A stretch of DNA of 64,000 nucleotides from an uncultured virus (IMG/VR IMGVR_UViG_3300012274_000057) (lineage: Duplodnaviria; Heunggongvirae; Uroviricota; Caudoviricetes): positions 1 through 64,000 of the IMG/VR virus record IMGVR_UViG_3300012274_000057. The stretch is one strand, 5' to 3'. The first letter of the stretch is position 1, and every line of letters begins with the position of its first letter. Made by a program: the position numbers and the translations under genes. The notes beneath the pieces were generated by a model. That model made no database searches, was not told where the DNA came from, and saw nothing but the letters and a program-made list of their open reading frames with translations. Of the stretch, positions 26,010 through 62,596 are shown piece after piece.

Positions 26010-26066
26010 ATACATCTCTTTAATGTATTGTATAACTTTAAAATTTAAGTTATATATTATAGTAAT

Positions 26067-26111
26067 GTATAAAAGTTTGTAAGTACTTTATATAAAATAT
26101 AATAAACTTAC
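26067..26111 (+). promoter_or_regulatory. Pseudoknot-like 5' leader, copy 1
   Basis: gtataaaag-tttGTAAGTa-ctttatat...aaACTTAC. Confidence 0.6.
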
Positions 26112-26133
26112 GTAAATGAAGGGGAGATTAATT

Positions 26134-27150: not shown

Positions 27151-27173
27151 TAAAAAATAAGGAGAGATTAATT

Positions 27174-32415: not shown

Positions 32416-32499
32416 TTTATATCCTCCTTTAATAGTTCATATTCTTATTAAATTGTTAACTTGTAAAAGTATGTAATTTCAATTATATATTATATTAGT

Positions 32500-32551
32500 G
32501 TATAAAAAGTTTGTAAGTATCTTTTTATATATAATAAAAATATAAACTTAC
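32500..32551 (+). promoter_or_regulatory. Pseudoknot-like 5' leader, copy 2
   Basis: gtataaaaag-tttGTAAGTat-ctttttatat...aaACTTAC. Confidence 0.65.
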
Positions 32552-32569
32552 TAGGGGGAGTACTTAAAA

Positions 32570-33172
32570 ATGGAAAATAAAAAATATAATATTAAAATTG
32601 TAGAACAAAAAGAAATAGGTTTCGACAAAATAATAATCAATATAATTGATCCAAATTTAGTTAATAATCAAGAATTAAAAATGTCATTATTACATTGGGA
32701 TATTCAATATATTCATTATCAGGATAATCTTAAAATTAATATTTGTGACTCTGATAAACATAACGCCGATAATAATAAAATGGATAGATTACAAATAATA
32801 ACTCAAATTTTAAAAGATTATATACATGATGATGTAGATATAAAAGCTACAAAGAATTCACTAAGTAAAAATAGAAATAGGACGATTTATGATAAATGCT
32901 ATAATAGAATAACACGTACTGAATATAATATTTATGAAACTATGGAATTTGATGGTAGAATATATGCAAAAACTGATTATCCAGATTCAAAAGTAATGTC
33001 AATTCCTAACTGCTCTAATATTGCTACGGTATATTATTATCATGAAATATACTTAGATACAGATATTAACTCTAACACCCACGGAGAATTCATTCTGTCA
33101 TCTAAGATATTACCATATTCTAAAATCTTTTCAGCAAGAAATATGGAGTCTTTGTTTGACTTAGATTGTTAG
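32570..33172 (+). CDS. Hypothetical early protein with pseudoknot leader
   Basis: 200 aa, early promoter at 32483, SD gggggag. Confidence 0.7.
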   Translation: MENKKYNIKIVEQKEIGFDKIIINIIDPNLVNNQELKMSLLHWDIQYIHYQDNLKINICDSDKHNADNNKMDRLQIITQILKDYIHDDVDIKATKNSLSKNRNRTIYDKCYNRITRTEYNIYETMEFDGRIYAKTDYPDSKVMSIPNCSNIATVYYYHEIYLDTDINSNTHGEFILSSKILPYSKIFSARNMESLFDLDC

Positions 33173-48947: not shown

Positions 48948-48959
48948 TTATAATATTAT

Positions 48960-49515
48960 ATAGATAGAGGCTTGAAACCTCTATCTATATAAACTTTATT
49001 TTTTCAGGTCTTACTTTGACTGACCATAGTTTCTATTACTTCTAACTCTCCCCTTAGAAAATAATAGAAACAAATATGTTGTTAGTTTAGTAGTTATATT
49101 ATCACATTTCTTATAAGAAATAAGTACTATCTCTTTTTATTCAAACTACTATTATACTTAATGCTACAATTATGTGTTCACTCATTTATTTCATATGTTT
49201 TCATAAGAGGTTTATCCATTATTCGTTTCCTACTGCTGAGAAATCGTCCATGGTATCACCTCTTTCCACTGTTCTTCTACTTAATCACGAAAGAGAAATG
49301 ATTAAGTTTTTTCTTTAGTACGTAAAAAATTCTTTATCAATTTTATCATATGTTTTCACCCCCTCTAAATTAGTTGTACTTAGAAGGGTATACTCATGTT
49401 TCTGCTGTTAAAAAGCGATAGACCAAATCTATCATCACCTCCTTAGACTTGATATAGTAACTATGATCAGTCATTTATTCGGTTTTTATTACTTTAATAA
49501 GCATTCTGTATTCGT
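48960..49515 (-). ncRNA. Candidate large structured RNA / minigene transcript
   Basis: Own early promoter (49520-49551, minus strand), no ORF of 60 aa or more, 15 bp end-to-end stem, several hairpins, terminator hairpin 48958-48990. Confidence 0.6.
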
Positions 49516-49581
49516 GATTATAATATATAATTATAAAAGTCAATTTTTACAAAGTAGAGAGAAGAGTATATACTCTTCTCT

Positions 49582-53644: not shown

Positions 53645-53771
53645 AATAACTCCTCCTCTCTTTCTATCTTATTAATAAGTTTATTTGGTATAAATATACA
53701 TACTATTTTCTATGTTCCTATGTGATATTTTTTTGTAAAAGTTTATATTTATAGTTGTATATTATAATAGT

Positions 53772-53826
53772 GTATATAAAGTTGTAAGTCATCTTTTTAT
53801 ATTAAAAATATTTTTTAAAACTTACA
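53772..53826 (+). promoter_or_regulatory. Pseudoknot-like 5' leader, copy 3
   Basis: tatataaag-tTGTAAGTcat-ctttttata...aaACTTACA. Confidence 0.6.
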
Positions 53827-53840
53827 GAAGGAGTATTAAA

Positions 53841-54278
53841 ATGGAAAATAATTTAATAAAATCAGTAGAAAACAATTATGCACAAAAAACATCAAAGGTT
53901 CAGGAAATAATCTATTCAAATTTAATTAGAGTATTAGAGGATGATGAAAAATTATCTCAAATTATAGATGATATCGAAATAGCAAAAATAGATAGCTTGG
54001 ATGAATTTGAAATTGATATATTGCAATTTTTAGATAGCTATGTAAATCCCAAAACAGCGAATTATGATATATTGATTAAGTATACAGAGAGGGGACACAT
54101 TATGAAAGATAACTATGATCCTATATTAAAACAAATGATTAAAGATATAAGAGAAGTAGATAAAAGAGCAGATAAGCTGTTTAGTATGATTATTAGTCTT
54201 ACTGGACAATTAGATATTGTGCCTACAATAGAAAATTTTTGTAGATTCATATGTAGGTCCAGAAGATGCAGATTATAA
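53841..54278 (+). CDS. Hypothetical early protein with pseudoknot leader
   Basis: 145 aa, early promoter at 53755, SD aaggag. Confidence 0.7.
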   Translation: MENNLIKSVENNYAQKTSKVQEIIYSNLIRVLEDDEKLSQIIDDIEIAKIDSLDEFEIDILQFLDSYVNPKTANYDILIKYTERGHIMKDNYDPILKQMIKDIREVDKRADKLFSMIISLTGQLDIVPTIENFCRFICRSRRCRL

Positions 54279-54835: not shown

Positions 54836-56344
54836 ATGGGAATATTTACTACATCAAAAAAAGTACAGCCATTAAAAATAGAAGTTTTTAGAGAATCTTA
54901 TATTATAAATGAATCTACTAATACTAAAAATAAATCAGAAAGGAAAGTTAAATGCCCTTTCTGTAATTTAAAAGATACTAAAGAAAATATAGTTCATCAT
55001 GTTGCAGAAGAACATGAGGATATGATACCTCAAGATTATACTGCAGCTAGAGTTGTTTTTAATTATTTAAATAAGAAAGAATTTGGTAGATGTATAGAAT
55101 GCAGAAGAGAAACTAAATGGAATGAAGAAAATTGGAGATATGAAAGACTTTGTGAAAGAAAAACATGTTATGATTCATATGTAGCTAAAGTTAAAGGAAG
55201 AATGGTAAAGAAATATGGTAAAGAACATCTTTTAGATGATATGGAACAGCAAAAGAAAATGTTAGACAATAGAAGCATATCAGGTAGTTATAAATTTAAA
55301 GATGGAGGAATTAGAACATATGTAGGAACTTATGAAAAGAAATTATTGGAGTTTTATGATAAAGTTTTAAATGTTTCTTCGACTGATATTTTAACTCCTG
55401 GTCCTAATATTGAATACGAGTTCAATGGTAAAAAACATGTTTGGATTACCGATCTTTATTACATCCCTTTGAATTTAGTTCATGATGTAAAAGATGGTGG
55501 AGATAATCCCAATAATAGGGATATGGGTGATTATAGAGCTAAACAAATAGCTAAAGAAACAGCTATAACAGAATTAAATAAATTTAACTATATAAGATTA
55601 ACTAATAATAATTTTGAGCAATTATTATTTATAATAGCAGAAATAAAATCACAATTAATGGATTCCGAATCTAATGAATACACTGTCCATATAAATGAAA
55701 TGTCCGCAACAGGAGGAGTAATGGCTCCAGCTAATGCTAATGATGGATATGTAATACCCTGTATGATTAATAATGGATTTATAGGATATGCTTTTTCCAC
55801 TGATAAATATCTTGATAATACATTTATGGTTAAAGATAATAAAATTAAAAAGATAACACCAGAAGAAATGAAAGACTATAAAATTACTTTATATAAATAC
55901 AATAGAGAAGATGCAATTGAAAAAATAGATTCTATAATAAATGATTATAAAACACAATCAGTAATAGAAAATACAGATAATTATTTTTATAATAAGTTTA
56001 CTGGAAGAGATCTATTATCTATAGATCAATTATCATTTGATGAAAACTTTGAAGAAGTAATAGACGGATTTACAGAATCTATAGAAAAACAGAATATAAT
56101 AGAAGAAAGTTTAAAATATAAATATGATAGACTTAGAGGTTTTATAGATTATAGTATTCCTGTGATAGGAGTTAAAGAAAATAATATAAAAGAATCTATA
56201 ATTAAAAACTTTAAAAATATAGATGTGTTGCAAGATTATAATGGTTATCATGTGAAAAATATTTATACAGAGTCTAGAAGTAGGAATTATGATAATATAA
56301 CCGATATTCCTAAATATATATTAGAGTTAGTAAATGAAAACTAG
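54836..56344 (+). CDS. Zn-finger plus PD-(D/E)xK nuclease (TnsA / T4 gp4 head-completion-like)
   Basis: CPFC...H....H and C..C Zn motifs; Y.GTYEKK...IEY....H.WITDLY...DVK nuclease pattern; late promoter at 54805. Confidence 0.6.
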   Translation: MGIFTTSKKVQPLKIEVFRESYIINESTNTKNKSERKVKCPFCNLKDTKENIVHHVAEEHEDMIPQDYTAARVVFNYLNKKEFGRCIECRRETKWNEENWRYERLCERKTCYDSYVAKVKGRMVKKYGKEHLLDDMEQQKKMLDNRSISGSYKFKDGGIRTYVGTYEKKLLEFYDKVLNVSSTDILTPGPNIEYEFNGKKHVWITDLYYIPLNLVHDVKDGGDNPNNRDMGDYRAKQIAKETAITELNKFNYIRLTNNNFEQLLFIIAEIKSQLMDSESNEYTVHINEMSATGGVMAPANANDGYVIPCMINNGFIGYAFSTDKYLDNTFMVKDNKIKKITPEEMKDYKITLYKYNREDAIEKIDSIINDYKTQSVIENTDNYFYNKFTGRDLLSIDQLSFDENFEEVIDGFTESIEKQNIIEESLKYKYDRLRGFIDYSIPVIGVKENNIKESIIKNFKNIDVLQDYNGYHVKNIYTESRSRNYDNITDIPKYILELVNEN

Positions 56345-56448
56345 AGATTCATTCTCTAGTTTTTTCTCTATGTAAAAATTAGAATATATAATTATATATT
56401 ATATATAGGAATAGTTGATAGTAATCTATTGCAAGTATAAAATTTAGT

Positions 56449-56605
56449 TAAGATATTAATTATACCATAAAAAAGTTTATCTCCCTCGTATATCGTGCAT
56501 AAAAAATATATTGTAGATTGAACTTATTTGGAATATCGTGATATCTACTAGGTATAGTTAATTTATCTTATTGAAGGGAGACCAAGGAATCTCCCTTCAT
56601 TTATA
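56449..56605 (+). ncRNA. Candidate small RNA unit 1
   Basis: taagatattaattatacc (56449-56466) pairs with ggtatagttaatttatctta (56551-56570), followed by hairpin 56572-56599; early promoter at 56392. Confidence 0.6.
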
Positions 56606-56618
56606 TTTTTAATTAGCC

Positions 56619-56747
56619 AAGATATTAATTATATTTCTATACTACCCCGATAAGCCTATGCCTCTTATAAACACCGTTCATAATATCTGTATAGAGATTA
56701 ATAATTAATTTATCTTATAAGAGAGGTGTCTCCTCTCTTTATTTTTT
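56619..56747 (+). ncRNA. Candidate small RNA unit 2
   Basis: aagatattaattat (56619-56632) pairs with ataattaatttatctt (56701-56716), followed by terminator 56719-56747. Confidence 0.6.
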
Positions 56748-56831
56748 ATATAAATACATTTTAAAATTATTTTTAACTATATATTATAGATATGTATAAC
56801 AATAAAAATAATTTTTAAGGAGAGATTAATT

Positions 56832-61123: not shown

Positions 61124-61930
61124 ATGGAAAATACAGTAATTAAAAAAGATATTAATGATGTAAACATTTTTGAAGAATGGAAAGAATATGATGATAAAGG
61201 AAATATAATACATTATAAAAATTCTAATGGGTATGAAGAATGGAAAGAATATGATGATAAAGGAAATATAATACATTATTCTAATGGATGTGAATATTGG
61301 AATGAATATGATGATAAAGGAAATTTAACTCATTATAGAAATTCTATTGGATATGAATATTGGAAAGAATATGATGATAAAGGAAATTTAATACATTATG
61401 AGGATTCTGAAAAATACGAACATTGGAATGAGTATAACGATAAAGGAAATATAATCTATAATAGAAATTCTAATGAATATGAAGAATGGAAAGAATACGA
61501 TGATAAAGGTAATATGATTCATTATAGGAGTTCCGATGGAATTGAATATTGGCAAAAATATAATGATAAAGGTAATATGATTCATTATAGGAGTTCCGAT
61601 GGAATTGAATATTGGAATGAATATGATGATAAAGGAAATTTAACTCATTATAGAAATTCTACTGGATATGAATTTTGGAGAGGATATGATGATAAAGGAA
61701 ATTTAATACATTATGAGGATTCTAATGGATATGAAAAGTGGAAAGAATATGACGATAAAGGAAATCTAGTGCATCGTAAAGATTCTAATGGATATAAAGA
61801 ATGGAAAGGATATGATGATAAAGGAAATATAATATATAAAAAAGATTCTAATAATGATAATATTAATAATGAATATAAATATGATGATAAAGGAAATATA
61901 ATATATAAAAAATCATATACTACATTATAG
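61124..61930 (+). CDS. YD/RHS-like tandem repeat protein
   Basis: 12 copies of ~21 aa W.EYDDKGN.IHY..S.GYE; early promoter at 61054. Confidence 0.8.
   Translation: MENTVIKKDINDVNIFEEWKEYDDKGNIIHYKNSNGYEEWKEYDDKGNIIHYSNGCEYWNEYDDKGNLTHYRNSIGYEYWKEYDDKGNLIHYEDSEKYEHWNEYNDKGNIIYNRNSNEYEEWKEYDDKGNMIHYRSSDGIEYWQKYNDKGNMIHYRSSDGIEYWNEYDDKGNLTHYRNSTGYEFWRGYDDKGNLIHYEDSNGYEKWKEYDDKGNLVHRKDSNGYKEWKGYDDKGNIIYKKDSNNDNINNEYKYDDKGNIIYKKSYTTL
61170..61915 (+). repeat. Coding tandem repeat, ~63 bp period, 12 units
   Basis: gaatatgatgataaaggaaat recurs at mostly 63 bp spacing. Confidence 0.9.
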
Positions 61931-62071: not shown

Positions 62072-62596
62072 ATGATTTTAGGTGGAAAAGAAATAATTAA
62101 AAGAGTAGAAAAGGGAGATATCTATATAGATAACTTTGATCCCGAGAAAGTAAATCCAAATAGCTATAATCTTACTTTAAATAATAAACTTCTAGTTTAT
62201 ACTGGAGATGTCTTAGATATGAAATCTCCCAATAAATACAGAACAATAGAGATTCCAGAAGAGGGGTTAGTGCTTCAACCAGGAACATTATATTTGGCTA
62301 GAACTAACGAAAGAACTATTACTGAAAAACTAGTACCAATGTTGGAAGGCAGATCTTCTATAGGAAGATTAGGAATGTCCATTCATGTAACAGCTGGATT
62401 TGGCGATGTAGGATTTGATGGGTTTTGGACTTTAGAAATCTATTGTGTACAACCCTTAAAAATATATCCTAATGTAGAAATATGTCAAATATACTATCAT
62501 ACAATTGATGGTGAATATGATAAATATAGAAGTGGTAAATATCAATTCAATGTAGATATTCAACCAAGTCTTTTATATAAAGATTTTCAAAAATAA
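62072..62596 (+). CDS. dcd: dCTP deaminase (possibly bifunctional with dUTPase)
   Basis: NPNSYNLTL, EGRSSIGRLG, TAGFGDVGFDG..TLE, GKYQ. Confidence 0.92.
   Translation: MILGGKEIIKRVEKGDIYIDNFDPEKVNPNSYNLTLNNKLLVYTGDVLDMKSPNKYRTIEIPEEGLVLQPGTLYLARTNERTITEKLVPMLEGRSSIGRLGMSIHVTAGFGDVGFDGFWTLEIYCVQPLKIYPNVEICQIYYHTIDGEYDKYRSGKYQFNVDIQPSLLYKDFQK

Follow-up and report, generated by a model that had tools for sequence, protein, structure and literature searches.

What is encoded in a stretch of 487 bp that contains no open reading frame (ORF), in the genome of an uncultured tailed phage? We addressed this question for IMG/VR virus record IMGVR_UViG_3300012274_000057 (230,112 bp; 26.6% GC; CheckV completeness, 93%), of which the first 64 kb constitute the window analyzed here. 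The gap lies at 56345–56831, between a Zn-finger/endonuclease gene (54836–56344; phrog_15137) and a 123-aa ORFan, P0003 (56832–57203, + strand). A sequence-only reading had described a gap of ~490 bp that holds an early promoter followed by two units of identical layout (5' arm, interior, 3' arm, hairpin); our analysis confirmed both the gap, with stops in all six frames, and the two-unit layout. The most economical reading of this cassette is a pair of small RNAs, and we see about an even chance that it encodes two sibling early small RNAs, in which a former translation-initiation region would be clamped to its own antisense strand and present variable loops.

A predicted stand-alone non-coding transcription unit

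Gaps of this kind are rare in the 230-kb genome: only 10 ORF-free gaps are ≥220 bp, and the cassette gap is one of two among these with at least two same-strand terminators. The other, at genome positions 110357–110780, carries terminators at 110541–69 and 110668–89, and an early core at 110718 precedes the next gene. Stops were abundant in all six frames of the cassette, with no ORF between the promoter and the terminators. Comparison with 401 small ORFs from 47 related IMG/VR loci, which were retrieved via alignment of homologues of the 807-aa neighbour gene, revealed no coding trace in the cassette (best match, 18 bits).

On its left side the cassette is bounded by the terminator hairpin of the upstream gene (56341–56365, + strand; CTAGAGAttcatTCTCTAG followed by a T run; terminator call, 56338–56362). 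Within the gap, two terminators were found against 0.1 expected from shuffled sequences, both on the + strand. T1 (56572–56610; hairpin, 56572–56599) consists of a 10-bp stem with the 8-nt loop CCAAGGAA, followed by TTTATATTTTT. T2 (56719–56748; hairpin, 56719–56739) pairs AAGAGAGG with CCTCTCTT around a 5-nt loop and continues into TATTTTTTAT; it belongs to a purine-run terminator type that is common in this phage, and similar terminators occur elsewhere in the genome.

The promoter P1 (56371–56409, + strand) comprises (A)TGTAAAA, with TGTAAAA at 56371–56377, a spacer of 14 nt, TTATATATTAT at 56392–56402, and six further nucleotides before a G at 56409. The arrangement TGTAAAA-N14-TTATATATTAT had previously been called an early promoter, and this assignment was borne out by its recurrence. 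TGTAAA followed by a TATATTAT-like box was listed at 33 sites genome-wide, 16 of which, P1 included, have a full TATATATTATA-type core, and the exact pattern TTGTAAAA-N12-15-TTATATATTATA was present in three of five related complete genomes (3, 1, and 7 copies; a reversed control pattern gave 0). In short-word BLAST, the promoter was the only part of the cassette that was matched in the 47 related loci. The AR9 transcriptome paper gives the early consensus, which is used by the virion RNA polymerase, as AAATATATATTAT-(6N)-G from 41 mapped start sites (PMC5312081). The P1 core, TATATATTAT-N6-G, fits this consensus as a motif match, and the start of the unit 1 transcript is therefore predicted at G56409.

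A second early core, P2 (56778–56794, + strand; TATATATTAT-AGATAT-G), serves the ORFan P0003; the cassette is therefore a separate transcription unit, and transcripts from P1 would have no coding purpose. Because it contains no ORF or coding remnant, and has an early promoter, two strand-specific terminators, and a separate promoter downstream, the cassette appears to behave as a stand-alone non-coding transcription unit. The earlier suggestion of such a unit, with a constant stem around unrelated interiors, was thus supported by the early-type promoter and the two + strand terminators.

A constant bulged stem encloses unrelated interiors

All parts of the two units lie on the + strand. In unit 1, the 5' arm (56444–56463; core, 56450–63) reads TTAGTT + AAGATATTAATTAT, and the 3' arm (56554–56570) reads ATAGTTAATTTATCTTA, an antisense of the 5' arm whose pairing includes a UU bulge and a single U-G pair. 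The 90-nt interior between them (56464–56553) has no ORF; it includes UAUCUCCCUC at 56478–56487 and the internal repeats already noticed in the sequence, ATATCGTG and CATAAAAAA, each of which indeed occurs twice. In unit 2, the 5' arm (56613–56632; core, 56619–32) reads TTAGCC + AAGATATTAATTAT, and the 3' arm (56701–56717) reads ATAATTAATTTATCTTA. Its interior is 68 nt long (56633–56700); the outer 10 nt on each side extend the stem and leave a C-rich loop of 46 nt (56643–56688) that is predicted to be mostly unpaired.

Comparison of the two units showed that 19 of 21 positions are identical between the 5' blocks (56444–56464 and 56613–56633) and 17 of 18 between the 3' blocks (56554–56571 and 56701–56718). 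The exact arms exist in two copies each in the 230 kb, on the + strand only; near-matches elsewhere in the genome have neither a partner arm nor a terminator. The minimum-free-energy fold of both units contains the pairing proposed in the sequence-only reading (6 bp, a UU bulge, and at least 8 bp), with 6 bp + UU bulge + 8 bp in common and an extension formed from unit-specific sequence, which amounts to 3 bp in unit 1 (ACC/GGU) and 10 bp in unit 2 (AUUUCUAUAC/GUAUAGAGAU). Pair probabilities in the stem were ~0.9 in single-unit transcripts. A G-U pair in unit 1 had been taken as a hint of the strand; the two non-Watson-Crick pairs are each U-G on the + strand. Each 3' arm ends 1–2 nt before its terminator and is followed by that single hairpin.

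In contrast to the arms, the interiors are unrelated, as had been noted; their alignment scored no better than that of shuffled sequences (z −0.55), revealing no detectable homology, whereas the terminator regions of the two units are still alike (z 4.3). The layout of sibling small RNAs is present, namely tandem paralogues with conserved termini and a divergent center. Since near-identical and mutually complementary arms stand beside interiors that cannot be aligned, uniform neutral decay after duplication cannot account for the pattern, and the conservation of the arms points to constraint on the putative clamp.

With their terminators included, the units had folding z scores of −3.2 and −3.6, which are mainly due to the terminators. 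A genome-wide scan of stems adjacent to terminators, with a fixed 20-nt window, placed the unit 1 closing stem third of 175 (−13.3 kcal/mol, against an average of −6.8); the 25 stems listed did not include that of unit 2. The other high-scoring stems lie in coding sequence, and the architecture is therefore not general in this genome.

The arms resemble a disabled early gene start

An origin that was absent from the earlier reading emerged from the comparison of P1 with other early promoters. Seven copies of a module that we call class A, TTGTAAAA-N14-TATATATTAT-N6-GTATAAAAAGTTTGTAAGT...AAACTTACAGAAGGAG...ATG, were aligned; they are located at 26025–26116, 32458–32570, and 53730–53841 in the window, and at ~100.7, 120.1, 130.4, and 133.5 kb in the genome. 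The arms of the leader hairpin covary between copies (GTAAGT/ACTTAC, GATAGT/ACTATC, ATAAGT/ACTTAT), and its 3' arm abuts the Shine-Dalgarno sequence. This hairpin is a conserved structure of the 5' untranslated region.

The P1 leader shares 15 identical nucleotides with the leader of the gene at 130526, which belongs to the 130.4-kb copy, and in an alignment of eight modules (A3), TTTAGTTAAG--ATATTAATTATACCATAAAAAAG aligns with CTTACAGAAGGAGAATTAATTATGAAAAAAG. The P1 promoter, leader, and 5' arm together are a paralogue of the class-A early module, with its promoter, leader hairpin, Shine-Dalgarno sequence, and ATG. The 5' leader of unit 1 (56409–56443, + strand) retains GTTGATAGTAATCT, the 5' arm of the class-A hairpin, and has lost the matching 3' arm. 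The 5' arm of the clamp with its TTAG prefix is therefore a disabled derivative of the leader 3' arm, Shine-Dalgarno sequence, spacer, and start codon; according to alignment A3, the disabling changes are the deletion of GGAG and the replacement of ATG by ATA. The 5' arm is thus a disabled ribosome-binding site, and the 3' arm is the antisense of that site. Both units carry the same disabling changes, and so they are duplicates of an ancestor that was already non-coding.

The 5' arm differs at 2 of 14 positions from GAGAGATTAATTAT(G), a stereotyped start region that nine genes share verbatim; 13 of 230 predicted genes have ATTAATTATG. The 3' arms paired with phage start regions somewhat better than shuffled sequences, at means of −5.9 and −5.6 kcal/mol compared with −4.6 and −4.5 (± 0.5) kcal/mol, and 13 start-region sites reached −10 kcal/mol or lower compared with 1–2 in control windows. 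Start regions of this type, GAGAGATTAATTATG (also GGAGAGAUUAAUUAUG), are found at 27162, 56820, and 61112 in the window and at genome positions 104807, 106194, 113302, 208813, and others. The ORFan P0003 downstream of the cassette itself starts with GAGAGATTAATTATG, the stereotyped site that the arms resemble. The motif was also seen in a relative (G002) near 166990. A cluster of small proteins (201–275 aa; window, 61124–61930; genome, 64297–66095) shows one RHS repeat match per protein, and several of its members sit behind the stereotyped start region.

The cassette is specific to its lineage

The sequence-only reading had proposed a search for further scaffold copies and for covariation in relatives, and this search found none in the genome itself, in four complete relative genomes, or in the IMG/VR, GTDB, and JGI collections. 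The exact scaffold pattern had 0 matches in IMG/VR, and a looser pattern had 8 matches in IMG/VR and 55 in GTDB, none of which (0/63) combined both full arms with a terminator. The sole looser match with both full arms spans the end of a 455-aa gene and was rejected. JGI metagenomes yielded 0 matches to the scaffold. A covariance model (R1) was restricted to the arms, because the terminators were misaligned by MAFFT, as was the 3' arm in a further alignment (A4). Within this phage genome, R1 recovered only the two units and terminator look-alikes. Without homologues, there is no real covariation support for the stem.

The cassette had not been recognized as a member of a named family, and the Rfam comparison agrees: Rfam 15 gave 0 matches at the gathering threshold in the 64 kb, and none above threshold in a search by E-value on 701 nt. 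A sub-threshold match to cow-rumen-4 covers T1 and an AU-rich stretch (56571–56628; 25.5 vs. a gathering threshold of 48.5 bits; E 0.075), and the T1 loop CCAAGGAA resembles the cow-rumen-4 loop GGUAAGGAAC.

Analysis of the 47 related loci revealed that 32 preserve the order of endonuclease gene and 807-aa gene, and that 22 of these 32 also have a gp25-like baseplate gene upstream. The ORFan P0003 and two small genes upstream of the endonuclease gene were found in 0 of the 47, and no homologue of P0003 was detected in a collection of 5.8 billion proteins or in phage records. In some relatives, the endonuclease and 807-aa genes abut or overlap; one locus (L083) has three further ORFs between them, and in others an early promoter and small ORFs led by Shine-Dalgarno sequences come after the endonuclease gene. 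The absence of both the cassette and P0003 from the related loci therefore indicates a lineage-specific insertion. Single-protein searches for close relatives came up empty for P0002 and for an RNA polymerase subunit, and gave a single distant locus for P0001. For the 807-aa neighbour, the closest homologues, from Logan/ENA contigs, are 52% (P0004) and 40–43% (P0005–P0010) identical.

The endonuclease with its N-terminal Zn finger (54836–56344; loci L067–L113) holds its position before the 807-aa gene in the same 32 loci, and it is not a mobile homing gene here; its homologue is much longer in some relatives (867 aa in L070, 734 aa in L079). ORF-free gaps with tandem terminators also exist in another relative, G001 (69–75 kb), and were rejected as counterparts, being unrelated to the cassette in sequence and layout. 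One of them, at 72540–73520 on the minus strand, is ORF-free over 0.9 kb and contains two ~200-nt copies of an AT-iteron-rich repeat (tatatggaatatatata...) and four terminators; neighbouring gaps of this kind are located at 69.0–70.4 and 74.9–75.3 kb.

Proposed mechanism and its weight

On the favoured reading of two sibling small RNAs, a virion-type RNA polymerase would start at G56409 from P1, as its motifs suggest. Some transcription would halt at T1 to yield an RNA of ~200 nt, and the remainder would read through to T2 and give rise to a unit 2 RNA of ~140 nt, possibly with cutting within the long AU-rich stems after read-through. In each RNA, the 5' strand would pair with the 3' strand (6 bp, a UU bulge, at least 8 bp), closing the molecule and presenting an apical domain specific to the unit. 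Such a clamp may stabilize the RNA, or it may flag the RNA for recognition by a factor that binds stems or by a double-strand RNase. The effectors would be exposed C-rich single strands, UCUCCCUC in unit 1 and CCCC and GCCUCUU in the unit 2 loop, which would most likely base-pair to mRNAs of the host or the phage at G-rich Shine-Dalgarno regions.

The two properties on which this proposal draws, C-richness and pairing with Shine-Dalgarno regions, had been claimed for both interiors, and each was found in one of them. The 46-nt loop of unit 2 is indeed C-rich (30% C, in the top 0.8% of windows), with a mean unpaired probability of 0.74. Against 230 predicted translation-initiation regions of the phage, it was the unit 1 segment UCUCCCUC that showed an advantage, with a mean of −11.2 kcal/mol compared with −8.6 ± 1.1 kcal/mol for shuffled sequences.

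Several results weigh against small RNAs of this kind. The unit 1 interior is not C-rich overall (14% C, ~43rd percentile), with one local CTCCCTC, and the C-rich loop of unit 2 paired with the 230 initiation regions no better than shuffled sequences (−11.9 vs. −12.0). Unit 2 has no recognizable early promoter of its own; upstream of it we found only a sigma-70-like match of 9/12. When the terminators are removed, the stems fold like shuffled sequences (z −0.61 and −0.40); the evidence for the helix therefore consists of the shared register and the conservation of the arms, not of energy. Covariation between the units is confined to the two helix-extension pairs that differ. Neither the 47 related loci nor IMG/VR, GTDB genomes, or JGI metagenomes contain the scaffold, and R1 gave no credible match in four complete relatives, where the best hit, of 25.7 bits, is a look-alike terminator. 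Moreover, descent from a gene 5' end, together with a second, apparently decayed early unit (48948–49581), keeps alive the explanation that the cassette is a relic. Antisense targets in the phage genome were limited to A/T low-complexity matches of 12–15 nt.

The clamp itself could also carry the activity, although we consider this improbable. The cassette would then encode self-masked riboregulators directed against ribosome-binding sites, with the 3' arm AUARUUAAUUUAUCUU antisense to the stereotyped start region ATTAATTATG of the phage. The 3' arm would be inert while paired with the disabled copy of the same start site; if the clamp came apart or was cleaved, by a host double-strand RNase in early infection for instance, the freed strand would block translation of defined phage genes, and the variable loops would give each sibling a second address.

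Alternative explanations

The cassette may instead be a non-functional relic of one or two small class-A early genes that lost the Shine-Dalgarno sequence and start codon, were duplicated, and are now decaying, an explanation that we regard as unlikely. It would account for the paralogy of promoter, leader, and 5' arm with class-A gene 5' ends and for the sequence of unit 1 after the arm, ATA AAA AAG TTT ATC TCC CTC..., which resembles a dead 'MKKFISL...' start. It is also consistent with the promoter and small Shine-Dalgarno-led ORFs that relatives have at the same position, with the nature of the cassette as a singleton insertion beside an ORFan, with stems that are not thermodynamically exceptional, and with another ORF-poor early unit at 48948–49581. 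The latter, on the minus strand, is the largest ORF-free gap (634 bp); a class-A promoter (49551–49519) faces ~560 nt in which the only ORFs are tiny (7–15 codons, Shine-Dalgarno-led) and which end at a bidirectional 17-bp terminator (48956–48992). This unit would be a gene in decay or a further early unit that is non-coding. In a variant of the relic explanation, the ancestral mRNA may have folded back on itself, with a 3' segment covering the ribosome-binding site as in type I toxin mRNAs such as hok. The cassette shares with hok a 5' strand resembling a ribosome-binding site that pairs with a 3' strand just before the terminator, but it has no ORF and no evident antisense RNA gene, and the Shine-Dalgarno sequence and start codon are destroyed in both units; neither unit has the intact small hydrophobic ORF, Shine-Dalgarno sequence, and start codon of a type I toxin. 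What speaks against a relic in either form is that no coding remnant is detectable, and that the arms are 92–94% identical and complementary although inactivation predates duplication, while the interiors show no similarity; since the arms were kept as the interiors diverged, a relic would need selection on the arms or a very recent conversion of the arms alone.

Three further explanations assign the repeated arms to other processes. Tandem attenuators or insulators in a cis-acting leader might control whether transcription from P1 continues into the ORFan and the 807-aa gene, with a C-rich anti-terminator in each interior; we give this little probability. Both units do lie upstream of the next genes on the same strand, and within each interior there is a stretch able to pair with its terminator's 5' arm. 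The unit 1 stretch, ATCTCCCT at 56479–86, is identical to the terminator 3' arm at 56589–96; that of unit 2, CTCTTATAA at 56662–70, is complementary to TTATAAGAG at 56715–23. However, matches of 8–9 nt are near chance in an AT-rich region with 35 inverted pairs listed, folds that end before the terminator 3' arm still favour the closing stem over the anti-terminator, and a separate early core, P2, serves the downstream gene; in addition, there is no match to an Rfam riboswitch or leader family, and the interiors, which would have to be aptamer-like, are mutually unrelated. A DNA-level element, in which the arms are ends of a miniature mobile element, invertase or recombinase sites, or operators of a DNA-binding protein, would fit the two short variable segments, each enclosed by imperfect inverted repeats of 14–16 bp with the same arms, in a block that is an insertion relative to relatives. 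We hold it to be very unlikely, as neither the 230 kb nor any of the collections holds further copies, the flanks show no target-site duplication, a scan of 218 ORFs detected no recombinase or transposase domain, the 3' arms stand 1–2 nt before strand-specific terminators, and both mismatches are U-G on the + strand. Finally, the units could mimic a crRNA:tracrRNA duplex and act as decoys of a host Cas9-like nuclease or another stem-recognizing factor, in the manner of tracr-L or a viral single guide. As described, tracr-L has a short 5' segment and then a repeat-like strand that leads through a large loop to an anti-repeat strand, with a terminator (10.64898/2026.06.01.729453), and the cassette resembles this layout in its repeat-like strand, loop, bulged duplex with a 3' strand, and rho-independent terminator; the stem has a 6-bp lower part and then a bulge, and the phage carries anti-defence genes, e.g., a Tad3 homologue. 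Yet a decoy is highly improbable: neither arm was found as a CRISPR-like spaced repeat in 185,579 species genomes (0 matches), a collection from which the host genome may be missing, and no Rfam tracrRNA or CRISPR repeat was matched. Unlike tracr-L, the cassette has no cognate CRISPR repeat in the collections searched, a single 3' hairpin without a nexus, and no recognizable Acr genes in its neighbourhood, and descent from a ribosome-binding site of the phage itself accounts for its arms. The broader idea of a guide system, raised in the sequence-only reading, likewise gained no support, with no further scaffold copies, no CRISPR-like array containing the arms, and no RNA-guided partner recognizable by Pfam in the ORFs scanned.

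Comparison with known RNAs and cassettes

As a pair of small RNAs, the cassette has its closest structural counterparts among bacterial regulators. OmrA and OmrB of enterobacteria are tandem sibling small RNAs whose conserved 5' end is a single-stranded seed. The phage units share with them two adjacent paralogous genes, near-identical ends, a divergent center, and a terminator each. In contrast to OmrA/B, the conserved ends of the phage units are predicted to pair together, one promoter serves both units, and the cassette is a prediction from sequence with no Rfam family. The Firmicute small RNAs RsaE/RoxS and RNAIII act through C-rich loops against Shine-Dalgarno sequences. Likeness to these RNAs is divided between the units, with an unpaired C-rich loop in unit 2 and, in unit 1, the segment UCUCCCUC that pairs with initiation regions better than shuffled sequences; the differences are that neither unit matches their Rfam models, that the units have no shared repeated conserved UCCC motif, and that the unit 2 loop equals shuffled sequences against phage initiation regions.

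The class-A module itself, an early promoter with a leader hairpin, is a repeated regulatory cassette of the general kind of the promoter-early stem-loop (PeSL) cassettes that were reportedly described in T4-type phages by Arbiol et al. in 2010. PeSLs flank protein genes and are thought to drive shuffling. Our cassette grew out of one copy of the class-A module, and this copy differs from a PeSL in that its gene is gone and that an antisense 3' strand and a terminator have been added.

Genome context

The phage encodes a split multisubunit RNA polymerase with 33–35% identity to those of Listeria phage LPJP1, Bacillus phages AR9 and PBS1, and Staphylococcus jumbo phages, and it is therefore a distant AR9-like jumbo phage. 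Full-text literature searches turned up no paper that deals with small RNAs in AR9-like phages; antisense RNAs are mentioned in the AR9 transcriptome paper, in which the term 'noncoding' does not occur (PMC5312081). Searches for protein partners of the putative RNAs gave negative results. Among the 218 phage ORFs scanned (14 + 96 + 108), there was no RNA-guided or RNA-binding partner recognizable by Pfam, and a domain search of the phage found no RNase III. A retron msr-msd requires an adjacent or co-resident reverse transcriptase, and PF00078 had 0 matches in the phage; Y RNAs require a Ro partner, and PF05731 (TROVE) had 0 matches in the phage, with no Rfam Y-RNA match either. No tRNA or tmRNA gene was found in the window or in the whole genome.

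A homologue of the Thoeris inhibitor Tad3 is located at genome positions 127321–128019 (L155:11321-12019; PF25185, E 6e-25), so that the phage has at least one recognizable anti-defence gene. A ThyX-type thymidylate synthase and a thymidylate kinase are encoded on the minus strand at genome positions 100775–103048 (L154:2775-5048), and a dCTP deaminase-like gene lies at 62072–62596 in the window. Together, these three genes suggest that the phage DNA is thymine DNA rather than the uracil DNA of the AR9/PBS1 type. In a freshwater DNA sequencing run, 0.17 of the sampled words were present.

Implications

To our knowledge, small RNAs of giant phages are almost unexplored apart from a few Pseudomonas phages. 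If the two small RNAs are real, the cassette shows a route by which new phage regulatory RNAs can arise, namely the copying of a promoter, leader, and ribosome-binding-site module, the disabling of translation, and the addition of an antisense strand and a terminator; the outcome would be a reusable clamp around interchangeable loops. Were the 3' arms to act as riboregulators, the phage would have built a translational timer from a recycled gene 5' end, and even if the cassette is only a relic, it still documents the decay of early-gene modules in this phage group. The two units also form a compact and testable pair, with the same scaffold and different cargo, for separating the contributions of stem and loop.

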